This document shows positions 52,947 through 64,000 of a DNA stretch of 64,000 nucleotides, one piece after another. The notes under the pieces are model-generated. The model did not search any database. It saw nothing but the letters and a program-made list of their open reading frames with translations, and had not been told where the DNA came from. This stretch comes from Candidatus Versatilivorator sp. (GTDB lineage Bacteria; Acidobacteriota; Terriglobia; Versatilivoradales; Versatilivoraceae): positions 3,808,001-3,872,000 of the forward strand of contig OZ242296.1 of assembly GCA_965207735.1 (NCBI GenBank), in the 5' to 3' direction. The translations under genes and the position numbers were made by a program. How positions within the stretch are numbered: the stretch's first letter is position 1; each line of letters opens with the position of its first letter.

Positions 52947-54152
52947 GTGGGAATCTTGGGGGAATTGGTTGTCATTTTTTTGCTCTGTCTTGCTTGGTTT
53001 GCTTACTGCATTTATTCTGAGTTTCGAGGATCTCCTTTTGAAAGGAGACGTGCCCGAAAACATGCCCAAAAAGAGGCAGAGAAACGTGCCAAAGACTACC
53101 CATTACATTGGGCCATTGAGCATGGCCGCCTAAGAGAAGTTGAGTCCCTAATGATGTCCGGGGCCAGCCTAAACACACGAGACGAGCGGGGTCAGACCCC
53201 ATTACATACGGCGGTGGATCATAACCGTCCGGAAGAGGTCAAATTTCTATTGAAGGCTGGAGTAGATCCTAACGCGAGGGAGTCCCCAGGATCTCTTATC
53301 AAGCAGGAGTACAACACGGAACCGGCGAAACTGAACGAATGGGGTCCGGCCGCTCTGCATAGTGCCGTGTGGCATACCCGTAACCTCGACATCACCACCG
53401 CGCTGCTGGATGCTGGGGCAGACCCCAACATGCGAGCCCATTTTGACAGGACTCCACTTCATAGTGCGGTCCCGCCCTACGAAACACATGAGACACGTGA
53501 AACACAAAAAGCTATTGTTCGAGCCTTGGTCAAGGCGGGAGCCAACCTGGAGGCACGCAACGAAACACATATGTGGACGCCGCTACACGAGGCAGCGCAG
53601 CAATCGGCCACAGCAACCAAGGCGCTGTTGGAGGCTGGAGCCAACGTTGAGGCGCGGTGCTACGACGGTTCGACCCCTCTACATTTGGCGGTATCGCCTC
53701 AGCTAATGTATTCGACCCCAAATCTAGCAGCCGCCAAGGTCCTGCTGGAGGGAGGAGCCAACGCCAACGCACGAGACAAGCGGAATCGAACCCCGCTGCA
53801 TCAGGCAGCAACCGACCGCATTATCCTTCATCGGTTGCTTGAGCCTCTACTGGAGGCTGGAGCCAACCTGGAGGCACGGGACAATCAAGGTCACACTCCA
53901 CTTCATCTAGCGGCAGCTGATTGGGACATCTCTACGGTCGAGGCCCTGATCAAGGCTGGAGCCGAAGTCGAGGCACGGGACAAGGAAGGACGTACCCCGA
54001 TTCATCATGCGGCGGCTAGATGCTTTACCTCCGCATTCGTGGCGCTGGTCAAGGCTGGAGCCGATCCTGACGCGCGGGACTTCTACGGTAAGACCCCAGG
54101 CCGCTTGGCGCATGACGGGTTGTTTGCGGGAGGGGGCGAAATCCTACGCTAA
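52947..54152 (+). CDS. Ankyrin repeat protein with N-terminal transmembrane helix
   Basis: GTG start after aggtgag; about nine repeats of TPLH.A...LL.AGA..EARD. Confidence 0.92.
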   Translation: MGILGELVVIFLLCLAWFAYCIYSEFRGSPFERRRARKHAQKEAEKRAKDYPLHWAIEHGRLREVESLMMSGASLNTRDERGQTPLHTAVDHNRPEEVKFLLKAGVDPNARESPGSLIKQEYNTEPAKLNEWGPAALHSAVWHTRNLDITTALLDAGADPNMRAHFDRTPLHSAVPPYETHETRETQKAIVRALVKAGANLEARNETHMWTPLHEAAQQSATATKALLEAGANVEARCYDGSTPLHLAVSPQLMYSTPNLAAAKVLLEGGANANARDKRNRTPLHQAATDRIILHRLLEPLLEAGANLEARDNQGHTPLHLAAADWDISTVEALIKAGAEVEARDKEGRTPIHHAAARCFTSAFVALVKAGADPDARDFYGKTPGRLAHDGLFAGGGEILR

Positions 54153-54221
54153 GCCGGCGCTGGCTAGGCGTCGCGGTCCAGGCACTCCGGTGTTTTGTTT
54201 TGTCTGCCACTATTTGCCTCA

Positions 54222-54250
54222 CGGTTCATCCCCGCGCCTGCGGGGAACAG
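54222..54250 (+). CRISPR. Solitary type I-E-like CRISPR repeat
   Basis: cggttcatccccgcgcctgcggggaacag (one mismatch to 52777). Confidence 0.7.
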
Positions 54251-54382
54251 AAAGCAACATCGGATTTTGGACGAAATCCTGAAAAAAACAGACCCTCCGT
54301 TGCCTTCTAAGCTATTTCCAAAGCACCCGACGGTCCGGGCACGGCCGCGGCGGCCCAGTCGTGGGGTTGTCCTGCCGGCGGT

Positions 54383-55323
54383 TCAATCCGGGATCAAGGC
54401 TTGGGCCGAGTATTGCACGTTGCGGCTGCTGGTGGTGGCCGCAATGGCTATCATCGAAAGCTGAAAGTTAAATCCGGTGTTGCCGGGCGCCCGGAGGCAG
54501 ACTCGGAGCAGGCGCGGCTCGGTAAAGGTCCAAGGGTTCAGCGCGTGATGCTTGCCGGATATCTTCAGGGCCGGAAGGCTGCCCAATTCGTTTCCCTGCC
54601 AGTCGTACGCTTGAACGCTTAGCCGGGTTTCTGGCGGCGCGGGCATGCCGGGCTCTGCGGTCACAAAGGCCAAGCCGACGTTGCTGTTGGGTCCGAAGTC
54701 GGCCGGTGTCTGCGTCGGAATCGAAAACGCTTCCAAGATCTCGCCATCCTTGCGGGTTATCAGGTAGCGGCCTTCGACGTGCAACGCTTCGGGCTCACAG
54801 TCCGGGGCACTCTCGATGTAGACCGCTCCAACGGCGAGGTCCTGGCCGGCGTCTCCGGTCAGCGTGATCTTTTGGGAACCGTGCGCATACGACGCGGCGT
54901 CGGGCGGAAAGCTGATTCCCAGGGTGTTGTTGTCCAGGTGGCGGCCGTTGAAACGTACCCGGGGAGCCTCTGTCGTTCCTTGGTGAAACCGGAGAGTAGC
55001 GTTGCACGGGTATGCGGTGCGGTTGGTAATTGTGATTTCGGTTCGTGCAGTGGAGTTTGCCAGCGGCCCGGCAAAGACGTGGGTGAGGATGTGCGAGACG
55101 CTGGGGGCGGCGGGTTTGCCGGGGTCGGCGGCGGTGTGGCTTTCGATCCAGTGTTGGACCAGGGCGGCCCGGGTATAAAAGGCCGGTGCTGAGTAGAACA
55201 CGGGTTGAAAGATTGCCGCGATGCCGACCAGGGCTGTCGCGCCGTCGATTTGGATTACCAGGGGGCCGCCGCTGTCGCCTTTGCGCATGCCGCCGACGTT
55301 CTTGACGTAACCGACACATAGAA
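54383..55323 (-). pseudogene. 5'-truncated trypsin-like (S1) serine protease with a C-terminal extension
   Basis: GDSGGPLV catalytic Ser motif, LVGI, YTR...WI; the His/Asp-containing N-terminus is replaced by the IS. Confidence 0.8.
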
Positions 55324-56810
55324 GAGCCTTTTGCAAAATTCGCAGATAGCGGGAATTTTCACGTGGGGAAAGATCAAGGAGGGCAGGTGGAAGGAGGGGC
55401 AAGACCACTGTCTGTTGTATCATGAAGGTGTCTGAACCACATGATGAACGGAGGTGGAACTTGCCCCTTAGGGAAACCCTATCACGACACTGGTTCCGGT
55501 TTCAACGAGAGCTGTTTCCCCTGCTGGAGGAAGTTTTGGGGCCTCTGGGAGAGCGTTACCAGCGGCTGGTGCAGGTATTGGAGTTGGTGCGGGTGGAGGA
55601 GTTGCTGCCTTACAGTCGGGGCTGGCGTGGCCGGCCGCTGGAGGATCGGGCAGTGCTGGCGCGAGCCTATCTGGCGAAGTCGATGCTGGAGGTGGCGACC
55701 ACGCGGGGATTGGTGGAGCGGCTGAGGAGTGAGGGGAGGCTGCGGCGGCTGTGCGGCTGGGAGAGGGCGTGGGAGGTACCGAGCGAGTCGACCTTCTCGC
55801 GGGCCTTTGCGGAATTCGCTGAGAGCGACCTGCCGGGGCGTTTGCACGAGGCATTGCTGGAGGAGACGCTGAAGGGCCACTTGGCGGGGCATGTGTCGAG
55901 GGACTCGACGGCGATTGCGGGACGGGAAAAGCCAGCGGCCAAGGCTGCGCCGGAGGCCAAGCGGAAACGCCGGCGGGGCCGGCCGCCGAAGGGCGAGCGA
56001 CGGCCCAAGCGGTTGAGCCGGCTGGAGCGGCAGGGGTCGATGACGCTGGAGGAAATGTTGAAGGAGTTGCCCAAGGCCTGCGACATCGGCGTCAAGCGCA
56101 ACGCCAAGGGGCATCAGGAGAGCTGGACCGGCTACAAGCTACACCTCGACGCCATTGACGGCGGGATTCCGGTCAGTTGTCTGCTGACCTCGGCCTCGGT
56201 GCATGACTCTCAGGCAGCCATTCCGCTGGCGACGCTGACGGCAAGGCGGGTCGAGAGTCTCTACGACTTGATGGACAGCGCCTACGATGCGCCGGAGATC
56301 CGGGCCTTCAGTGAGAAGCTGGGGCATGTGCCGATTATTGACGTCAACCCCCGCCGAAGAGCTACCTTGAAAGCCGAGCGGAAGCGGGAGGCACTGGCCC
56401 GGCGCTGTATCGGCCAAGTGACTCCCGAGGCGCGGCGCTACCGGGAACGCTCGACGGTGGAGCGGGTCAACGGACGGCTCAAGGAGGAGTTTGGCGGGAG
56501 GCAGGTGAGGGTTCGCGGCCCCGACAAGGTGAGGTGCCACCTGATGTTCGGCATTCTGGCCCTGACGGTGGATCAGTTGATGCGCCTGACGCTCTGAAGA
56601 CCGGGTTGCCACCCCCAACCGCACAGCAGGTTCGCCCGCCTCAAGGCCGGGAGAGGGTAAGCTGTGCCTGCGTCCGGCGACCGCTGGCCATCCGGCCATC
56701 AGATTCGGGCTTTTTCCTTCAAAAGGGTCTTTGCAGCTGGGTAGTCACCGCCGGAACATCACTGTTGCCAGCCCAATGTCATGCCCGATTCCGAATTTTG
56801 CAAAAGGCTC
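55324..56810 (+). mobile_element. 1487-bp DDE IS, copy 5 (no matching TSD)
   Basis: Same IRs; flanks AGAA and GACT differ. Confidence 0.95.
55422..56597 (+). CDS. DDE transposase (identical copy)
   Basis: Identical translation. Confidence 0.95.
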   Translation: MKVSEPHDERRWNLPLRETLSRHWFRFQRELFPLLEEVLGPLGERYQRLVQVLELVRVEELLPYSRGWRGRPLEDRAVLARAYLAKSMLEVATTRGLVERLRSEGRLRRLCGWERAWEVPSESTFSRAFAEFAESDLPGRLHEALLEETLKGHLAGHVSRDSTAIAGREKPAAKAAPEAKRKRRRGRPPKGERRPKRLSRLERQGSMTLEEMLKELPKACDIGVKRNAKGHQESWTGYKLHLDAIDGGIPVSCLLTSASVHDSQAAIPLATLTARRVESLYDLMDSAYDAPEIRAFSEKLGHVPIIDVNPRRRATLKAERKREALARRCIGQVTPEARRYRERSTVERVNGRLKEEFGGRQVRVRGPDKVRCHLMFGILALTVDQLMRLTL

Positions 56811-56835
56811 GACTTAATGAAGGATTATCGGAAGT
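56811..56835 (-). other. dif-like recombination site A (XerD-like arm cut by the IS)
   Basis: Minus strand ACTTCCGATAA-tccttca-TTAAGTC|IS. Confidence 0.6.
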
Positions 56836-56950
56836 TGAGCCTTCTTGACTTCGTGAAACGCAGTTCAGTAACCTCGTCACACTGATTCCAAAGAATTCAA
56901 CCCGTGTACCAGCGCAGAGGGCGGAGTTCCACCTCTTGCTGATCGGAAGC

Positions 56951-57268
56951 ATGATAGTCACCCTGTTCTTCTGGCCGGCCATCGCGCTCAGTGTTCTAGT
57001 TGCCATTGCCGGAGTGATCCTGCGAAGAATCACCCCGTTACTTGTGGCAGCGGCGCTTGTTCTGCCGGCCTCAGCATACCTCGCAGCAACTCCGAGATTC
57101 GAGGTCTGGGGATTGTTCCCGGTTGGTGTCTATCTGCTGGCGGCGCTGGCTATTCACTGGCTTGAAGGGTTACCTGGCAGGACAACCAGCATCTCGCTTA
57201 TTGCCGGGAATGCCTGGTTCTTTTGGGACCTCTTTGCAGAAATATTCAGATTCCCCCTAAATCCGTGA
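56951..57268 (+). CDS. Small multi-pass membrane protein (cassette A-B)
   Basis: Four hydrophobic segments. Confidence 0.65.
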   Translation: MIVTLFFWPAIALSVLVAIAGVILRRITPLLVAAALVLPASAYLAATPRFEVWGLFPVGVYLLAALAIHWLEGLPGRTTSISLIAGNAWFFWDLFAEIFRFPLNP

Positions 57269-57338
57269 GCTTTTCGAGGCAACCTGCGATTTCCCAACCT
57301 CTAGCATACCCCTACGACCTGGAGGTGGATTCTCCCCT

Positions 57339-57367
57339 GGTTGACATAGGTGGACTTTATCGGAAGT
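57339..57367 (-). other. dif-like recombination site B
   Basis: ACTTCCGATAA-agtccac-CTATGTCAACC. Confidence 0.75.
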
Positions 57368-57390
57368 TGGGGAGAAAACAGCAGGGGAGA

Positions 57391-58107
57391 TCAATCAATA
57401 CCTGATCTGTGCGCATGCACGGGTCGGCTCAACAAATCAAGCAGAAGCCTTTCCCGAAGCAGAGGTCTTCGCGTTTGGGACTGGAGTTGCTCCGGTCCGA
57501 AGGGCTTATCATCGAGCAAGAGCAAGCGGCTCTCTGAGGTGTTTGAGCCTTGCTTAGTCGCTGTTGGTGGGGGCGCGGGCGCAGGATCATCCCGGAGCTT
57601 GCGCGGCACGTTGTAGACACCGCCCCATCTCGGGGAAACCAGGAAAGCAATACCTGTGGGAACTCCCACGAACAAACCACTAAACAAGGCCCATCCTCGG
57701 CCATTCAGATCCCACCCGGGTGCCAACCCGAGAAAAATCCCCGTGGAGGCCCCAGCAGTGATCCATCCAAGGTACCGTTTCGAAAGAGGACGATATACGA
57801 GAACCTTTTCAACGGCTTGCTTCCGGAGAGTGAGCGTTTGCCCGGTCGGCGACAGGAGCATGACGGCCTCGGCCGAGGCCGACTGAAATTGTCCTTCAAC
57901 CCTCTGAATGCCTCCAGGAGCCCGGTCCTTGTAGAGCCGTACCCTGGTGCGCGCTCCAGGTGCAATTCTCTCCACCTTGGACCAGTCCCGCCTGATCCAC
58001 GTTCCTGCTTCTGCCACAGGCGATACTCCAATTACAGTCAGCAGGAGCACAAGTCCTGTAGCCGTGCCCTGTCTGAACAGCTTCCAAAAACCTGTGTTTG
58101 CCTTCAT
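57391..58107 (-). CDS. Hypothetical secreted/membrane protein (cassette B-C)
   Basis: Signal peptide, small beta-rich domain, two Gly-rich hydrophobic segments; paralog of 58122..58853. Confidence 0.7.
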   Translation of the reverse strand: MKANTGFWKLFRQGTATGLVLLLTVIGVSPVAEAGTWIRRDWSKVERIAPGARTRVRLYKDRAPGGIQRVEGQFQSASAEAVMLLSPTGQTLTLRKQAVEKVLVYRPLSKRYLGWITAGASTGIFLGLAPGWDLNGRGWALFSGLFVGVPTGIAFLVSPRWGGVYNVPRKLRDDPAPAPPPTATKQGSNTSESRLLLLDDKPFGPEQLQSQTRRPLLRERLLLDLLSRPVHAHRSGID

Positions 58108-58121
58108 TGGCACCCCGAGTT

Positions 58122-58853
58122 TTACCTGATTGACATATTGGGACCTTTTCGGAAGTGCAAGGGCACACTTGACAAATCAAGTGGGAGATTTTGCCGCATC
58201 ACGGCTCGCCGGGATTGCCGGCGAAGCCGATCCGCTTTTGATTCCTCAACGAGTGAGAGGGCCAACGCTTCTTCCGAGGCCGTCGTGTTTGAACTCTGAT
58301 CCTTGTTTGTGGGTTTCGGCTCTCCTTCGCCGGGCGAATCGGGGATGATTTCGATAAGGGTGACATTCCTTGAACCCCGGGGAAGATTTATCAACACGGC
58401 AAGGGCCGAGCCAATTCCAATACCTGCCCATAGTGAAGGAGCACCCGATCCTTGGCCGGATCCCCATACGTAGTTCAACGCAACGGTTCCCACCAAAGCA
58501 CCCACGACAGCCCCAACGGTCAGCGCGGCCTTTTTCGCCCTCCTCGCGACCAAGTTTGCGTTGACATCTAGGGCCTCGATTCGAGAGACGGCTTCTCTCG
58601 CAACCTCAATCTGTCCCTTCGGGTCATCGGAGCTCCTCTTGACCCATAAGACGACCGACGACTCCTTCACCCTCTTGACTCGCCCCTTCACCCGTGCGCC
58701 CTCGGCGACGTGGAGTGTGACTTTCTTCCCACGGATCACTTTCTTTAGTTCACTCCAACGGACTTGCAGACGTTTTTCCGGGTCGGAGCCAAGCAGGATT
58801 CCGTTCATTGCCAGAAACGCTGTCAACACGCCAAGGATTCGCCACCGCTTCAT
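58122..58853 (-). CDS. Hypothetical secreted/membrane protein (cassette C-D)
   Basis: Signal peptide MKRWRILGVLTAFLA; same architecture as 57391..58107. Confidence 0.7.
   Translation of the reverse strand: MKRWRILGVLTAFLAMNGILLGSDPEKRLQVRWSELKKVIRGKKVTLHVAEGARVKGRVKRVKESSVVLWVKRSSDDPKGQIEVAREAVSRIEALDVNANLVARRAKKAALTVGAVVGALVGTVALNYVWGSGQGSGAPSLWAGIGIGSALAVLINLPRGSRNVTLIEIIPDSPGEGEPKPTNKDQSSNTTASEEALALSLVEESKADRLRRQSRRAVMRQNLPLDLSSVPLHFRKGPNMSIR
58128..58156 (-). other. dif-like recombination site C
   Basis: ACTTCCGAAAA-ggtccca-ATATGTCAATC. Confidence 0.65.
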
Positions 58854-59020
58854 GTCATGACCTCGTGGTTCCATTTTCGTCGTCAACAAGCTGGCTCACT
58901 CTGTCCGAACCATTCAGACGGAAATCCTACCCCCACATTCCGAGTCACCCGCCGGCACCGCCGGCCATAGCCGTTGCGTGGCCGGCCAAGTACTGCTCGT
59001 CCTCGTCACCGGCGTCGTAA

Positions 59021-59049
59021 AGTTTACATATCCCGATATTATCAGAAGT
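59021..59049 (-). other. dif-like recombination site D
   Basis: ACTTCTGATAA-tatcggg-ATATGTAAACT. Confidence 0.75.
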
Positions 59050-59151
59050 CGGCGGCTAGCGCCTGGGGCCTCGGGTGAGTCTGTCGGCGAGCCAGCCAAT
59101 CAAGAGCAGGACCAGCAAGGCACCGAGAATCCAGTCAACGAGTGTCACGCC

Positions 59152-59180
59152 AGTTTACATAAGGAGACCTTATCGGAAGT
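59152..59180 (-). other. dif-like recombination site E
   Basis: ACTTCCGATAA-ggtctcc-TTATGTAAACT. Confidence 0.8.
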
Positions 59181-59272
59181 GAACCAAGCTGTTGCTATTG
59201 TGACTCCTAGGGCGTTAGACTCTTCTCACTGATTTCCAAAAATTCAACCATGTACCATCACGGAGGGGAGAA

Positions 59273-59893
59273 ATGAAACCCATACTATGGGCAACCCTAT
59301 TTCTCGTTGCCTCATTTCTCACACTGCCGATTTCTTCTGCCGCCCAGTGGATGCCGGTTGTGGCAAAGCAAAGGAGTCTCGTTTATGAGGTCAATCCCGA
59401 TGGCTCGGAAGTGCTGGTCTCGGAGCGTAGAGGCACTTTCTTCCGTACATCATCCGGCTCGGTCATTCGCACGCTATTTACTGTGAAAGATGGACAGACA
59501 CAGGGGAAGGGATCGTCGATTCTGATTGACGCGCAAACAGGGAAGACTTATTCCCTCAATCATAAAAGGCGGACTGCCCGGGTGTCATCATACGTAAGAC
59601 AACCTCCGCTGCTACCAACGCCGAGAGACGATCTTACCGACGATCGAGTGATCGGCAGCGGCACGATCAATGGGGTAGAGTGTATCGCTTTGAAGTGTTA
59701 TGAGGGTGGGTTTGACGACGACAACGTTGTGCCGGGAAAGTCTTGGGTTAACCTTGCCTACGATCTAGCTGTGAAGAGTGATTGTCTCTGGTTCTCCACC
59801 AGACGTTCAGTTACTGAGCTGTACGATATAGAGTTCAAGGAACCAGATAACTCCGTCACTTTCGGCATTCCGGAAGGGTACACAACACGATGA
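59273..59893 (+). CDS. Hypothetical secreted protein (cassette E-F)
   Basis: RBS ggag, signal peptide ending SAA-Q; beta-rich, C-terminal EPD...FGIPEGY. Confidence 0.75.
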   Translation: MKPILWATLFLVASFLTLPISSAAQWMPVVAKQRSLVYEVNPDGSEVLVSERRGTFFRTSSGSVIRTLFTVKDGQTQGKGSSILIDAQTGKTYSLNHKRRTARVSSYVRQPPLLPTPRDDLTDDRVIGSGTINGVECIALKCYEGGFDDDNVVPGKSWVNLAYDLAVKSDCLWFSTRRSVTELYDIEFKEPDNSVTFGIPEGYTTR

Positions 59894-59956
59894 TTGTTTC
59901 TGGACCCTCAGCTCTATAGCCCGACGGACCCAGCAGTTGATTGACCAGAGTGCAGC

Positions 59957-59985
59957 AGTTGACATATTCAACGATTATCGGAAGT
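59957..59985 (-). other. dif-like recombination site F
   Basis: ACTTCCGATAA-tcgttga-ATATGTCAACT. Confidence 0.8.
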
Positions 59986-60664
59986 AGCCTCGACTCATTC
60001 CAAAGGACTTAGAAATATTCTCAGTCTGGATCTCCCCAAAACCACAAGATGTAGGCCGCCGGCAGCCTAGTCGGGAGGCCTCTTGTGGTGTTCCAGGGAC
60101 CGCATTTGAACTCCAGCCCGTCACCAGATCCCCCCTAAATCCTTGAGCTTTGCCGGTCAGGCTGCGTTTTCCGGGACTCCGGGGTGCCCCCCAATACCCT
60201 CGAACAATTCCGGGGCGATTCTGTATCTCACAGAGGGCACCCCGTCGCTCGTTGTGGGCCATCCGGGGTTTTCGCCCGGATCCGCGTGAAAACAACGCAC
60301 ACAGTTGCGCTGTGCTGGATTTTCTTTGGGTTTGATGACCCGTAGTACCAAGGATTTCAGAGGTCTCCGGAATCTAATCAGAAGTATTAGCAACGGTTAC
60401 GGATTCTAGGAAATGATCCCAGAAGGGAGTTCGACAAAACGATTCGCCCCCACTTGAAAACCACCGTCGAACACCATGGCGGCCTCGATGTCGTCATGGA
60501 GAATATCGTCCAATAGGAGCAGGAAAGCCCGGCTTCCAACGGCCGCGAAATGATTGACGTTTTCCGCCTCGGGGGGGCAAGGACGTGGCGTCGTATGGGT
60601 GGCCACCTTTCCGATGGGGGGTGGCTCACACAGGTGGCTCACCAAGTGGCTCACGCTTTTGACC

Positions 60665-60990
60665 ACTCCAACGCTCCTCTCTCAGAGGGCGAAGTCCTCG
60701 CCGTCGTGGTCCAGGTTGTGCCCGGAAACCCGCATTGGAAGCGGGTTGGCACGGATTCCCCGAGTCCTCTGCGGTAAAGCGTAGTGCGGTGCCGGCGCCG
60801 CGCTTCCCCGCCTCGCATGGTACGTCGTGGCGTCGCACAGGAGGGGGAGGAAGTGGAGGGAGCGACCCCCTGGTTTTTGGCGCTGGTGCGCCACCGGGCA
60901 GGGGGAGGTGGCGCGCATGAAAATTCGCACCATCTCCCCTCCCGGGCGGGGGTCGCTCCCTCCACAGTGATCCCTGCGGGAAGGCCTAAA
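60665..60990 (-). other. Structured non-coding element, copy 3
   Basis: Reverse complement aligns to 37831-38147; perfect 18-bp IR at 60853-60870 / 60948-60965. Confidence 0.6.
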
Positions 60991-61894
60991 CACTGAAGAC
61001 TTGGACTCAGGTTGCCCTGCTTTACCTGGCTTTGACTGCTGCCGGGCTTCGCGCCTCTGGTTCAGGCAAGATGAGGCCTTGCGCTGAAACCAGCCGCTTG
61101 AGTATTGTGTGTCTTATCGGTTCAAGAAGTCAGGGGCGGGACACTTGAATGGATGTCACAATCATGTGTCGTGGGTAGGTCTTATTTCTGCGATATGCCA
61201 TCGTTTTGAGTAAAGAAGAAAACCGGCATAATTGAGTTACTGCGCGCAGAAAAGGCCTGAAGGCTCGAGCGCTTCGGCGGGCGAACACCCTTAGCACCCA
61301 TCAGAGGCGCAGGAAGCAACTTTAGGGTTTGAGGCACGTCAGGGGCAGGGAAGACACAGCCTGTCCAGCAAAGCTCGAGGAATTTCGGGGCTTCACGATG
61401 AAACTAGAGAGCGTTGAGATTGTCCTTTTGCTCGGACCGGATCCAGTCATTGCCACTGGCAACGTCATTGGTGTTGAGGAAATTCCTGATGGAGCACGTT
61501 TCACTTTGCGAACCAGTGCAAGAGTTTCCCGTTAATCGAAGCTGCATGGCAGGCGAGGAAAATTCGAGATCTCCAAGGTAGAGCAGAACGGGGATCGGTG
61601 GATAGTTGAGGGTAAGCGACTTGGCAGCGAACACTGAGCCGCATCCGGACGGTGCCTGATCTAGTGAAATTCCGGGATACTCGGGTATGCCAGATCTTGA
61701 GAAAACGCAGCAAGGGTCAACGGTGGGCCTCTCTTTGGAGCGGGGCACGCCAACAAATTCCGGTTGTCCCACAGGCGGCGCGACTGCGGTCTCTGAGACG
61801 AAAATCGGGGTGGCGGCAGTTTCTGGCGTACTTCGGTAGACCAGAGAGGGGAAGTGCGGTCTACCCGGCAAAGCTCCAAGGACTAAGGCGGGGG

Positions 61895-62419
61895 ATGGAA
61901 CCCATGATCCACCAAAATGCTCGTCCCGAGAACCAAGACATCGAGAAGCTCCGCTTGGCTGCTGAACTTGGAAATGCCGAGGCGCAATACAAGCTGGGTA
62001 ATGTGTACTACCTTGGTGAGGGAACGCCCCAGGATTATGCCGAAGCCGCGAAGTGGTATCGGCTGGCGGCTGAGCAGGGAAACGCTGCGGCACAAAACAA
62101 CCTGGGGGTCATGTACGACGAGGGGGAGGGAGTTCGGCAGGACGACAGGGAGGCGGTGAAGTGGTATCGCAAGGCGGCCGCGCAGGGAAACGCTTCGGCT
62201 CAATACAATCTGGGAGTCATGTACGACCTGGGTGAGGGCGTGCCGAAGGATCGTGTGAAAGCCTATGCCTGGCTGAATCTTTCCGCCGCCAATGGCAAGG
62301 AGAACGCTGCCAGAGGTAAGGACTTGCTCAGATCGAGGATGACCGCCGAGCAAGTGTCCGAAGGGCAAAAGCTCGCTGCCGAGCTGTTCGACCGCATCGA
62401 ATCCTCACGATCTCAGTAA
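61895..62419 (+). CDS. Sel1-like repeat protein
   Basis: Repeated AAEQGNAAAQNNLGVMY..GEGV..D..EAVKWY; AYAWLNLSAANG. Confidence 0.92.
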   Translation: MEPMIHQNARPENQDIEKLRLAAELGNAEAQYKLGNVYYLGEGTPQDYAEAAKWYRLAAEQGNAAAQNNLGVMYDEGEGVRQDDREAVKWYRKAAAQGNASAQYNLGVMYDLGEGVPKDRVKAYAWLNLSAANGKENAARGKDLLRSRMTAEQVSEGQKLAAELFDRIESSRSQ

Positions 62420-62427
62420 CTCCTCCA

Positions 62428-62456
62428 ACTTCCGATAAGACCTACCTATGTCAACA
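62428..62456 (+). other. dif-like recombination site G (inverted relative to A-F)
   Basis: ACTTCCGATAA-gacctac-CTATGTCAACA, 8 bp after the Sel1 stop. Confidence 0.8.
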
Positions 62457-62695
62457 AAGGGGCAATCGCAGTAATAACTTCAGGCACTAGGGATTGCCAG
62501 ACCTGGAGAGGTTGCAGCACAGGCCAACTGAAGGCCTCTTTTCTTGCTTTTCGGGCCGAAATTCGCGCTGTAAGCGTTCTTGGGATGCTGGGTACGACGG
62601 AGTCGTAGAAATCGCAGGTTACCTGTCAAAGCTCATGGATACAAGAGAGATCCCGGGGAGTGCAGAGCTTCCAGATGCAAAGAGTCCGATCGTAA

Positions 62696-62962
62696 ATGCC
62701 TGAGTTTGTCCTGCGTCGAGCGCCCCCCTTCAAAAGGGAGAGAGTCCCAATGGAATTCGAATCGACCTCCGGTGGATTTATCTTGAAAGTGAATGCTGGT
62801 TTGGGCCCGACCATCGAGTGGAATGCAAACGAGGAAGAAGTGTCCATACTGCTGCCCACCCTCGACAGGCACGGCAAGCTGGACCCGAATAGCAGGCGCT
62901 TCATGGTGCACGTCAGGCGCCATGCAAACATGAGTCCAAGCGTCAATATCTTTCAACTGTAG
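62696..62962 (+). CDS. Small hypothetical protein
   Basis: 88-aa ORF; no recognisable motif. Confidence 0.35.
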   Translation: MPEFVLRRAPPFKRERVPMEFESTSGGFILKVNAGLGPTIEWNANEEEVSILLPTLDRHGKLDPNSRRFMVHVRRHANMSPSVNIFQL

Positions 62963-63117
62963 TACGGATGCGGATCCCTGAGGCTTTGGGACACAGGTGG
63001 CGAGGCCTCCGCCGCCTGTTTAATTATCGAGGTGCTATGGGTCGCTGATTTTCCCCCGAGGCGGCTATGAGGCTGTTGATTCAGCGGACAATCGAGACCG
63101 GCCAGGAACGCCCTTCC

Positions 63118-63660
63118 TCATTGTCGGAAGTGGAGCCGGACATGTTGGCGCAGTTGCGGCCTCTGGTGCCGGAGGGGATCAAGTCTGGCCAGGTAACGCG
63201 CCCAGTCGTCCATCAGGACACGCCGGCGTTCGAACAGGTCCGAGCGGGCATAGGCCGCCTCTACCCTATTCTGGACGACATGCGCCAGGGCTGCCTCGAT
63301 CACCTCCCGGGGGTGATCGGTCTCCTCGGCCGCCCAGTCCCGGAAGCTGGACCTGAACCCGTGCGGCACGGCTGCAATCCCCTGCTCGCGGACCAGCCAC
63401 CGTAGCTCCTTGTCACTGAGCGGCTTCCCTTGTCCACGGGTGAATACCAGAGGACCGGCTCCCTCATCCAGTGCCTGCACTGCCTCGAGAATCTCCATGG
63501 CACGGCCGCACAGCGGCACCCGGTGCTTCCGGTTCGCCTTCATCCGCCTGGCCGGGACGGTCCATACGCCAGCGTCCCGATTGATCTCCTCCCACTCGAC
63601 CCAGCGCACCTCACTCCACCTAGCCGCTGTCAGCACCAGGAACTGGTATGGATTCATAGA
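63118..63660 (-). pseudogene. Catalytic-domain fragment of a P4-type tyrosine integrase
   Basis: FLVLTAARWSEVR, RMKANRKHRVPL, HGFRSSFRDW, AH...AAY; arm- and core-binding domains absent. Confidence 0.85.
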
Positions 63661-63761
63661 ATCCATAGACTTCCATAGTCGTCCAATAAGGATTATAACT
63701 ATCTCTATAAACATATACTTACATGCATTATCCAACACTCCGTGTTTGCCCAGGATGTCCC

Positions 63762-63790
63762 TTGAAAGCTAGAGTCATTCCCGATATAAT
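63762..63790 (+). promoter_or_regulatory. Sigma-70 promoter for the integrase
   Basis: TTGAAA-N17-TATAAT, ending 6 bp before ATG 63797. Confidence 0.65.
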
Positions 63791-63796
63791 TGGGGA

Positions 63797-64000
63797 ATGA
63801 CTTATGGAATCAATCCGCCCCGCACGTCCCCCAAAACCAAGCCCAAGGGCCGCCATCCCCAAAAGGCCCTCTCGGCCGCCTTCGTGCGCTCGGCTCCGCC
63901 GGGAAGGCACTGTGACGGCAACGGATTGTACCTCTTCGTCCAGCCCAGCGGCACCCGGAGCTGGATTCAGCGGCTTGTCATCCGGGGCCGCAAGCGCGAG
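63797..64000 (+). CDS. P4-type tyrosine integrase, N-terminal arm-binding (DUF4102-like) domain; runs off the window
   Basis: Own translation: MTYGINPP...KALSAAFVRSAPPGRHCDGNGLYLFVQPSGTRSWIQRLVIRGRKRE. Confidence 0.85.
   Translation, partial: MTYGINPPRTSPKTKPKGRHPQKALSAAFVRSAPPGRHCDGNGLYLFVQPSGTRSWIQRLVIRGRKRE

Follow-up and report, generated by a model that had tools for sequence, protein, structure and literature searches.

The DNA considered here is a stretch of 64,000 nucleotides from a Candidatus Versatilivorator sp. (Acidobacteriota), taken from contig OZ242296.1 of assembly GCA_965207735.1 at C1 positions 3808001-3872000 and called the window below; the genome (G000) is a single contig of 5.26 Mb. 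Near one end of the window lies an array of short repeats that look like the Xer recombination site dif, with small genes between them (Table 1; positions are those of the window unless a genome position is indicated). The reading that we favour, and consider probable, is that the small genes are gained, lost and re-paired at these repeats, with the XerC and XerD recombinases of the host as the likely enzymes.

The window was scanned with the motif ACTTCYGAWAA-N8-TATGTMAAYH, allowing at most three mismatches, and 100 dinucleotide-preserving shuffles served as the control. There were seven matches in the window, none in the shuffles, and none with the reversed pattern, and the sites are real and non-random. 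Six are on the minus strand in direct orientation and the seventh is on the plus strand, inverted; each is 28/29 bp long. Sites 2 to 6 have no mismatches, site 1 has three, and no two of the seven spacers are alike. The places, orientations and spacers given in an initial annotation, made from the sequence alone, are thereby confirmed. The layout of the array sites is ACTTCYGAWAA-N7-nTATGTMAAY, that is, an XerC-type arm, a 7-bp spacer and an XerD-type arm, the inner base of the latter being variable (A 17, T 12, C 6 and G 1 among 36 sites).

Along the minus strand, and so from XerC-type to XerD-type arm, the row runs: the conserved flank R1, site 6, cassette c5 (inverted), site 5, a 103-bp unit, site 4, c3, site 3, c2, site 2, c1 (inverted), site 1, and then an insertion sequence (IS). 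Genes in the same orientation as the sites start 15-35 nt past the XerD-type arm and stop just ahead of the next site or inside it. For c2 these distances are 21 nt from site 3 and 24 nt from site 2, while the final 11 codons of c3 are encoded by site 3 itself. The inverted genes c1 and c5 share a conserved leader of about 100 nt beside the XerC-type arm. The contents of the intervals, single genes for membrane or secreted proteins and one almost empty unit of about 100 bp, are as first described.

Table 1. Features of the site array and its surroundings, in order of window position
Feature	Position	Strand	Description
IS, 1487 bp	55324..56810	+	DDE_Tnp_1 and DUF772 transposase, open reading frame (ORF) 55422-56597
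Site 1	56807..56835	-	spacer TCCTTCA; XerD-type arm truncated by IS
c1	56936..57268	+	105-110 amino acids (aa), hydrophobic; opposite to site orientation
Site 2	57339..57367	-	spacer AGTCCAC
c2	57391..58107	-	238 aa; signal peptide and Gly-rich membrane segment
c3	58122..58853	-	243 aa, paralogue of c2; signal peptide and Gly-rich membrane segment
Site 3	58128..58156	-	spacer GGTCCCA
Site 4	59021..59049	-	spacer TATCGGG; XerD-side flank class D3/L1
103-bp unit, c4 frame	59056..59148	-	hydrophobic frame of 30 codons
Site 5	59152..59180	-	spacer GGTCTCC
c5	59273..59893	+	206 aa, signal peptide; opposite to site orientation; leader type as c1
Site 6	59957..59985	-	spacer TCGTTGA; platform-type site beside conserved flank R1
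R1	59986..60386		conserved flank on XerC-arm side; class C2, 12 of 67 site records
525-bp dispersed repeat	60462..60986		dozens of copies, 68-91% identity; sharp ends
Sel1-repeat gene	61895..62419	+	stops 8 nt before XerC-type arm of site 7
Site 7	62428..62456	+	spacer GACCTAC; inverted relative to the other six
Site 7-to-integrase stretch	62457..63117		88-aa ORF 62696-62962; c1-like 3' relic 62608-62640
P4-type tyrosine integrase, C-terminal fragment	63118..63738	-
P4-type integrase, start	63797..64000	+	412 aa at full length; belongs to next island

The cargo of these arrays consists of Sel1-repeat proteins together with orphan secreted or membrane proteins. Sel1-repeat genes are the commonest cargo type in the genus (flank class C1, in 12 of 67 site records). 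Searches against Pfam assigned no family to c1, c2, c3, c4, c5, the 88-aa ORF or two frames within the 525-bp repeat. A homologue search with c2 found 92 sequences, only two of them named, both as hypothetical proteins of Acidobacteria metagenome-assembled genomes. A paralogue of c1 with 85% aa identity is found at genome position 183413-183099. In the genome G001 (C1:4095294-4097095), c3-like matches are repeated about 600 bp apart, which suggests tandem c3-like copies. No further copy of the 103-bp unit turned up; it may be a linker that joins a pair of sites rather than a gene, and paired sites also occur in the Ectobacillus and Planococcus stretches that were read.

To compare the array sites with others in the genome, the whole of G000 was scanned at different spacings (numpy mismatch scan, at most three mismatches). 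This gave 23 matches: 16 with a 7-bp spacer, five with 6 bp, two with 5 bp, and none longer. A site with a 6-bp spacer is present about once per genome in 13 of the 14 genomes of the genus, and the DNA on either side of it is collinear with G000 697-702 kb in 12 relatives. In G000 this site is at genome position 700804, on a plateau of the cumulative GC skew (690-770 kb), and it is the chromosomal dif. The dif of the genus reads ACTTCCGATAA-N6-TTATGTMAACT, with the XerC-type arm ACTTCCGATAA in 9 of 13 loci and the XerD-type arm TTATGTMAACT in all 13. None of the other matches is within 250 kb of dif.

The arms of the array sites match those of the host dif, except that the inner base of the XerD-type arm varies, and the centre is one base longer. 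The suggestion that the sites are of Xer type was well founded, given that their arms equal those of the genus's own dif. The 6-bp centre characteristic of chromosomal dif is absent from the array sites, and their 7 bp falls within the 6-8 bp of plasmid and phage Xer substrates. The centres of cer and psi are within this range. The initial annotation had set the 7-bp spacer apart from the 6 bp of dif and of the Acinetobacter plasmid sites (pdif); the host dif does have 6 bp, but a 7-bp centre has a precedent in the 29-bp attP of VGJ-type phages (PMC4246890).

Both host recombinases are encoded outside the window. XerD (380 aa) scores 354.1 bits against the NCBIfam model TIGR02225, for which the cut-off is 329.6, and XerC (302 aa, genome 1476825-1477730) scores 336.5 bits against TIGR02224, with a cut-off of 335.15. 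The remaining PF00589 matches score far lower, and those inspected are P4-type integrases. For the integron integrase, no match in the genome exceeded the TIGR02249 cut-off of 265 bits, the top scorers being XerD and XerC. The absence of xerC, xerD and an integron integrase from the window had been noted correctly, but the window does contain tyrosine recombinase genes, those of the P4-type integrases (Table 1). The xerD gene (genome 674484-675623) encodes an N-terminal domain in which a unit of about 39 aa is repeated three times, in tandem and in frame, and an IS-type transposase gene lies immediately downstream of it.

Evidence for exchange comes from the flanks. Across the genus (14 genomes), the flanks of 67 site records were sorted into classes. 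Class C1, the 3' end of a Sel1-repeat gene, is paired with D1, D2, D3 or unique flanks, and class D1 is paired with C1, C3, C6 or unique flanks. The classes on the left and on the right of a site are independent of each other.

Paralogous loci within G000 point the same way. The sites at genome positions 1078692 and 2871376 each combine the left flank of window site 4 with the right flank of site 6; relative to these loci, the window carries two extra cassettes and two extra sites at that place. In a further array, array A (genome 180.7-183.5 kb), R1 is joined straight to c2-c1 paralogues via a site that has now decayed, and in the array at 1077-1079 kb a 150-nt linker separates R1 from c2/c1 paralogues. 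In the genome G005 the order is c2-like, site, c3-like, site, which is opposite to that in the window. Contigs assembled from other samples begin to match the window at site edges (58156, 56837 and 57348); in one of these, X13, c3 shows 7 differences in 663 nt (99% identity), against 89% identity for c1. Judged by such comparisons, recombination at the sites is supported by flank assortment, paralogous loci, array A and the contig breaks. The proposal that the sites bound exchangeable gene units is upheld by the first three of these.

Spacers recur between loci. That of site 1 is also present in an intact site at genome position 4011479, that of site 3 recurs at 1078512 ahead of a c2 paralogue, and a site identical to site 7 is found at 1536289. 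Identical spacers with one flank changed (0 mismatches) were found in five pairs sharing only the C flank and three sharing only the D flank. pdif recombination takes place between sites with identical or near-identical spacers (PMC13141974), and the recurrence of spacers with a changed flank fits this like-spacer rule. The initial annotation had postulated a recombinase tolerant of spacer mismatch. This is not borne out, in that identical spacers recur with different flanks and the data fit exchange between like spacers.

A quite different explanation would make the motif a protein-binding operator or a promoter element belonging to a gene family, rather than a site of recombination. Genes do begin 15-35 nt away from an XerD-type arm, or about 100 nt away from an XerC-type arm, and a promoter-like sequence TTGGAA-18-GATAAT (59974-60003, minus strand) spans the R1 motif, the XerC-type arm of site 6 and the first spacer base, directed into the array. 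Promoter-like matches, counted as consensus matches alone, are however not in excess over shuffled sequence (3 against 2.7). The sites are few (23 in the genome), all beside accessory DNA except dif, and their number varies from 0 to 15 per genome within one genus. Most members of the gene families have no motif, and homology between loci breaks at the sites. The scan of the genome and its relatives thus speaks against a transcription-factor box, and we consider this explanation very improbable.

The motif is found in 12 of the 13 other genomes of the genus, at 1-15 sites each, in none of 11 other genera of the family, and in one of 16 genomes from other families of the class. When species representatives were scanned with the exact pattern, 99 stretches were found, of which 80 were retrieved. 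Among these 80 are stretches from Candidatus Versatilivorator, other Acidobacteriota, Tectimicrobiota and many Bacillales. Ectobacillus panaciterrae DSM 19096 (G041) has 59 sites with a 7-bp spacer and 75 with a 6-bp spacer (at most one mismatch). One of its 6-bp sites has an all-A/T centre, like dif in two Planococcus genomes, and is probably its dif. In the contigs of this genome that were read (L241, L242, L243 and L161), direct sites bound single genes, encoding lipoproteins, transporters and regulators, and a 6-bp CACTGA site is frequently followed about 60 nt on by a 7-bp TGAnATG site. The Planococcus genomes G042 and G043 (L244) each combine a single 6-bp dif with 5-7 of the 29-bp sites, some of which are paired in direct orientation, 1.1-2.2 kb apart. 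Sites of the 29-bp kind also occur on 19 viral contigs. The window stretch is found in sponge or viral metagenomes in small shares (0.05-0.13), which are no evidence of habitat.

Plasmids raise a second alternative, namely that the sites are cer/psi-like multimer-resolution sites of an excised island or of a plasmid ancestor, operated by XerC and XerD, and that tandem accretion and duplication produced the arrays as a side effect, with no system of cassette exchange behind them. An 11-7-11 site with a conserved flank is present on 244 Bacillus plasmid records, and one small plasmid was read in detail. Site and flank are common to many plasmids of the Bacillus cereus group, where the site may be an Xer resolution site. 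On the Bacillus mycoides plasmid NZ_CP036107.1 (L240 1500-1550) the 11-7-11 site is unannotated and has a conserved palindrome-like flank. Plasmid Xer sites have centres of 6-8 bp and accessory DNA by the XerC arm, and in the islands of several genomes a platform-type site occupies a fixed place together with R1, which on this view would be the accessory sequence on the XerC side.

R1 is indeed conserved beside such sites in many genomes, with a fixed motif 8 nt from the arm, but it also contains a relic of a c1-like 3' end (60125-60172), and it looks like a decayed c1-type cassette. The spacers of R1-type sites almost all start with TA. A resolution site would account for one site per element and not for six in a row with different single genes between them; it leaves the free assortment of flanks unexplained, as well as the more than 130 Ectobacillus sites that bound single genes. 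We regard this alternative as quite unlikely.

The arrays sit within islands that carry P4-type integrases, and do not form the ends of these islands. In G005, G009 and G002 the arrays are within insertions of 9.7-13 kb in a chromosome otherwise collinear with that of G000, where the empty places are at 1064326/1064329, 3218312/3218346 and 2578070/2577929. Site scans of these three loci revealed no site at the island junctions. One pair of island ends, that of G002, was compared base by base with the empty G000 locus; both ends are AT-rich and without the motif, which indicates that the sites are internal cargo machinery and not the att sites of the island. This island encodes ankyrin, LRR, CarboxypepD_reg and Sel1 proteins as well as a P4-type integrase. 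The window contains no tRNA genes, and hence no tRNA-type att site near the array. Like six of the seven sites in the window, those in the clusters of G005, G009 and G000 1077-1079 kb are direct.

This setting suggests a third alternative, that the sites are used by another tyrosine recombinase, either one of the many P4-type island integrases or a dedicated enzyme that is lost or distant, the arrays being orphans. Integrases related to the P4 type use 7-bp overlap regions, a 7-bp centre is typical of lambda/P4-type core sites, and clusters of integron cassettes without an integrase exist. In G002, 55 nt separate the 3' end of an integrase gene from a site; in the window, in G009 and at genome position 1536289 the distance is 660-940 nt. 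The G005 array is flanked by two further recombinase genes, and the Planococcus sites are one arm base off the host dif. On the other side, the arms are the same as in the dif that is conserved on the chromosomes of the genus, and the AT-rich, motif-free ends of the G002 island suggest that P4-type enzymes use other att sites. There is no PF00589 match near the sites at about 180778, 446545 and 4011479, and no recombinase was recognised on four Ectobacillus and Planococcus stretches, three of them many-site arrays, from the first 60 residues of each frame and with no family search. The two extra genes of G005 are a 172-aa fragment and a gene beside an IS91-type transposase frame; they were considered as a dedicated recombinase and rejected, the G000 counterpart (5008.7-5009.6 kb) being broken, with no site nearby. 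Overall this alternative is unlikely.

Several observations nevertheless weigh against the exchange of genes by host XerC and XerD. The attribution to these enzymes, acting in trans, is drawn from the identity of the arms and is no more than probable. P4-type integrase genes are often 0.05-1 kb from a site. In Planococcus the 29-bp sites carry CCGATAA, as against CCTATAA in the host dif, so that the sites need not be copies of the resident dif. Whether a spacer stays with the XerC-side or the XerD-side flank would bear on an exchange by XerC alone; spacer mismatches average 3.23 in pairs sharing only the D flank and 4.02 in those sharing only the C flank, figures that come from pairs that are not independent and that favour neither side clearly. 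In contigs X13 and X14 the homology in c3 ends at the outer edge of the XerC-type arm and not within the spacer, which would not be expected from a simple crossover. Neither circles nor deletion junctions nor other variants within a sample appeared in X9-X14, and no joint centred on two sites; as these are assembled contigs, from which rare forms are dropped, this negative carries no weight either way. Some sites have decayed, one having a 5-bp spacer and one in array A an internal deletion. Finally, many paralogues of c1, c2, c3, c5 and the Sel1-repeat genes, in G000 and its relatives, have no site at up to five mismatches. Homologues of the cassette genes elsewhere are thus bounded by the same sites in some cases and siteless in many, and the idea of a gene-capture platform, which the exchangeable units support, can be only part of the story.

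If host XerC and XerD do move the cassettes, the following mechanism can be proposed. Two sites with matching centres would synapse, and XerC would exchange the first pair of strands without FtsK, as at the 29-bp attP of phages of the VGJ-type integrative mobile elements exploiting Xer (IMEX). The resulting junction would be resolved by replication or by XerD. The XerC-only, FtsK-independent, reversible exchange is borrowed from the IMEX model: VGJ attP is a 29-bp dif-like site at which XerC alone exchanges strands and replication resolves the junction, and specificity is set by matching bases beside the XerC arm (PMC4246890). Between two DNA molecules or islands, the outcome would be the integration of a circle or the swap of a module; like centres on other islands or circles would permit integration or a two-step module exchange, as proposed for pdif. 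Within an array, the unlike centres would stop neighbouring sites from deleting the genes between them, and the extra base in the centre would set array sites apart from the 6-bp chromosomal dif. Arrays would grow from the platform site next to R1, inside P4-type integrase islands, and the islands would carry them between chromosomal locations.

The arrays share features with several known systems. As in the Acinetobacter dif modules, short gene modules are bounded by copies of a site of host dif type with variable spacers, the same modules occur in different contexts, and the enzymes would be supplied in trans by the host. Exchange that fits sites with like spacers is a further likeness (PMC13141974). 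The A. baumannii enzymes have reportedly been used to complement an E. coli xerC xerD mutant (PMC7399989). The arrays differ from those modules in having 7-bp rather than 6-bp spacers, and mostly direct sites (six of seven in the window) rather than alternating ones, hence single-gene units. They are also located in chromosomal P4-type integrase islands rather than on Rep_3 plasmids, and carry Sel1-repeat and orphan secreted cargo rather than resistance or toxin-antitoxin genes. VGJ-type IMEX have a 29-bp site (11-7-11) and encode no recombinase of their own (PMC4246890), and in both respects the arrays are similar. IMEX however integrate at the chromosomal dif, whereas the arrays are 0.25-3.3 Mb from dif, in islands, and each of their units, 0.1-0.9 kb in size, is a single gene, with no functions for replication or of a phage.

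The similarity to integron arrays lies in the one-gene units in a one-directional row, in the intergenic space that is nearly all recombination site, and in a conserved platform at one end with cargo that varies among relatives. Integron attC sites are long imperfect palindromes of 57-141 bp that recombine in folded, single-stranded form. Here there is no IntI, the sites are 28/29-bp double-strand sites of Xer type rather than folded attC, and some cassettes are inverted with their own leader. Like cer and psi, the array sites have arms of Xer substrates, a centre that exceeds dif's in length, and conserved DNA next to the XerC-type arm; cer and psi are present once per replicon for resolution, whereas here there are rows with different genes between the sites.

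The end of the array at site 1 has been cut. The site is interrupted at 56810/56811 by the right end of an IS with 19-bp perfect terminal inverted repeats, so that the truncation noted at first is genuine and due to the IS rather than to decay. There are 43 full copies of this IS in the genome, most with a 4-bp target duplication. The copy in the window has none (AGAA on one side, GACT on the other), which means that the DNA to its left, containing a truncated trypsin-like gene, is not the original neighbour of the array. The far end of the array is lost through IS-mediated rearrangement. Two of the 43 copies are within 40 bp of a site, both without target duplication; the second, at genome position 4928490, is 38 bp from a degenerate dif-like site at 4928425-4928452. 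By our estimate, two copies so near to about 23 sites are more than expected by chance.

At the other end, the array is neighboured by repeats. Copies of the 525-bp repeat that were inspected lie beside the 3' ends of P4-type integrase genes; the repeat contains a perfect 18-bp inverted repeat (60853-60870 and 60948-60965) and gave no Pfam or Rfam match. A second repeat family comprises the 3' end of c1-type genes together with the sequence that follows it. Its members are at 57247-57294 and 60125-60172 on the plus strand and at 61333-61390 and 62608-62640 on the minus strand, and relics of it flank the central repeat region on both sides. The stretch between site 7 and the integrase has a copy at genome position 1535103-1536339 that is 94-96% identical. 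Between the truncated integrase gene (minus strand) and the full one (plus strand) there is an AT-rich junction (63650-63796), which looks like the insertion of one island into the integrase gene of another, and comparable AT-rich DNA is found at the end of the G002 island (L096, about 1390-1440). A search of 54000-64000 against Rfam found nothing above noise, the one match being to sul1 (E 0.62), under the gathering score.

Taken more widely, the arrays could belong to a widespread and undescribed class of Xer-driven cassette systems built on 29-bp (11-7-11) dif look-alikes, integron-like but without an integrase of their own, which move genes for eukaryote-like (Sel1) proteins and surface proteins from one genomic island to another in sponge-associated Acidobacteriota and reach more than 100 single-gene cassettes per genome in Bacillales such as Ectobacillus. 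We put this forward tentatively, as a possibility that is on balance doubtful. No account of such arrays in Acidobacteriota or Bacillales was found in the literature, of which subscription journals were thinly covered.

Beyond Acinetobacter plasmids and a few phages, there is hardly any documentation of mobile DNA exploiting the housekeeping Xer system. If host XerC and XerD do move these units, the arrays would represent integron-like gene gain without a dedicated recombinase, and searches for mobile elements that rely on integrases would miss such systems. The arrays carry genes for Sel1-repeat and secreted proteins, which are thought to mediate host contact, and sequences of this lineage are also present in sponge metagenomes, in small shares only. 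The recurrent centre that is one base longer suggests a simple rule separating mobile Xer sites from the chromosomal dif. Culturable Ectobacillus and Planococcus strains share the layout, and would permit this centre-length rule to be tested at the bench.

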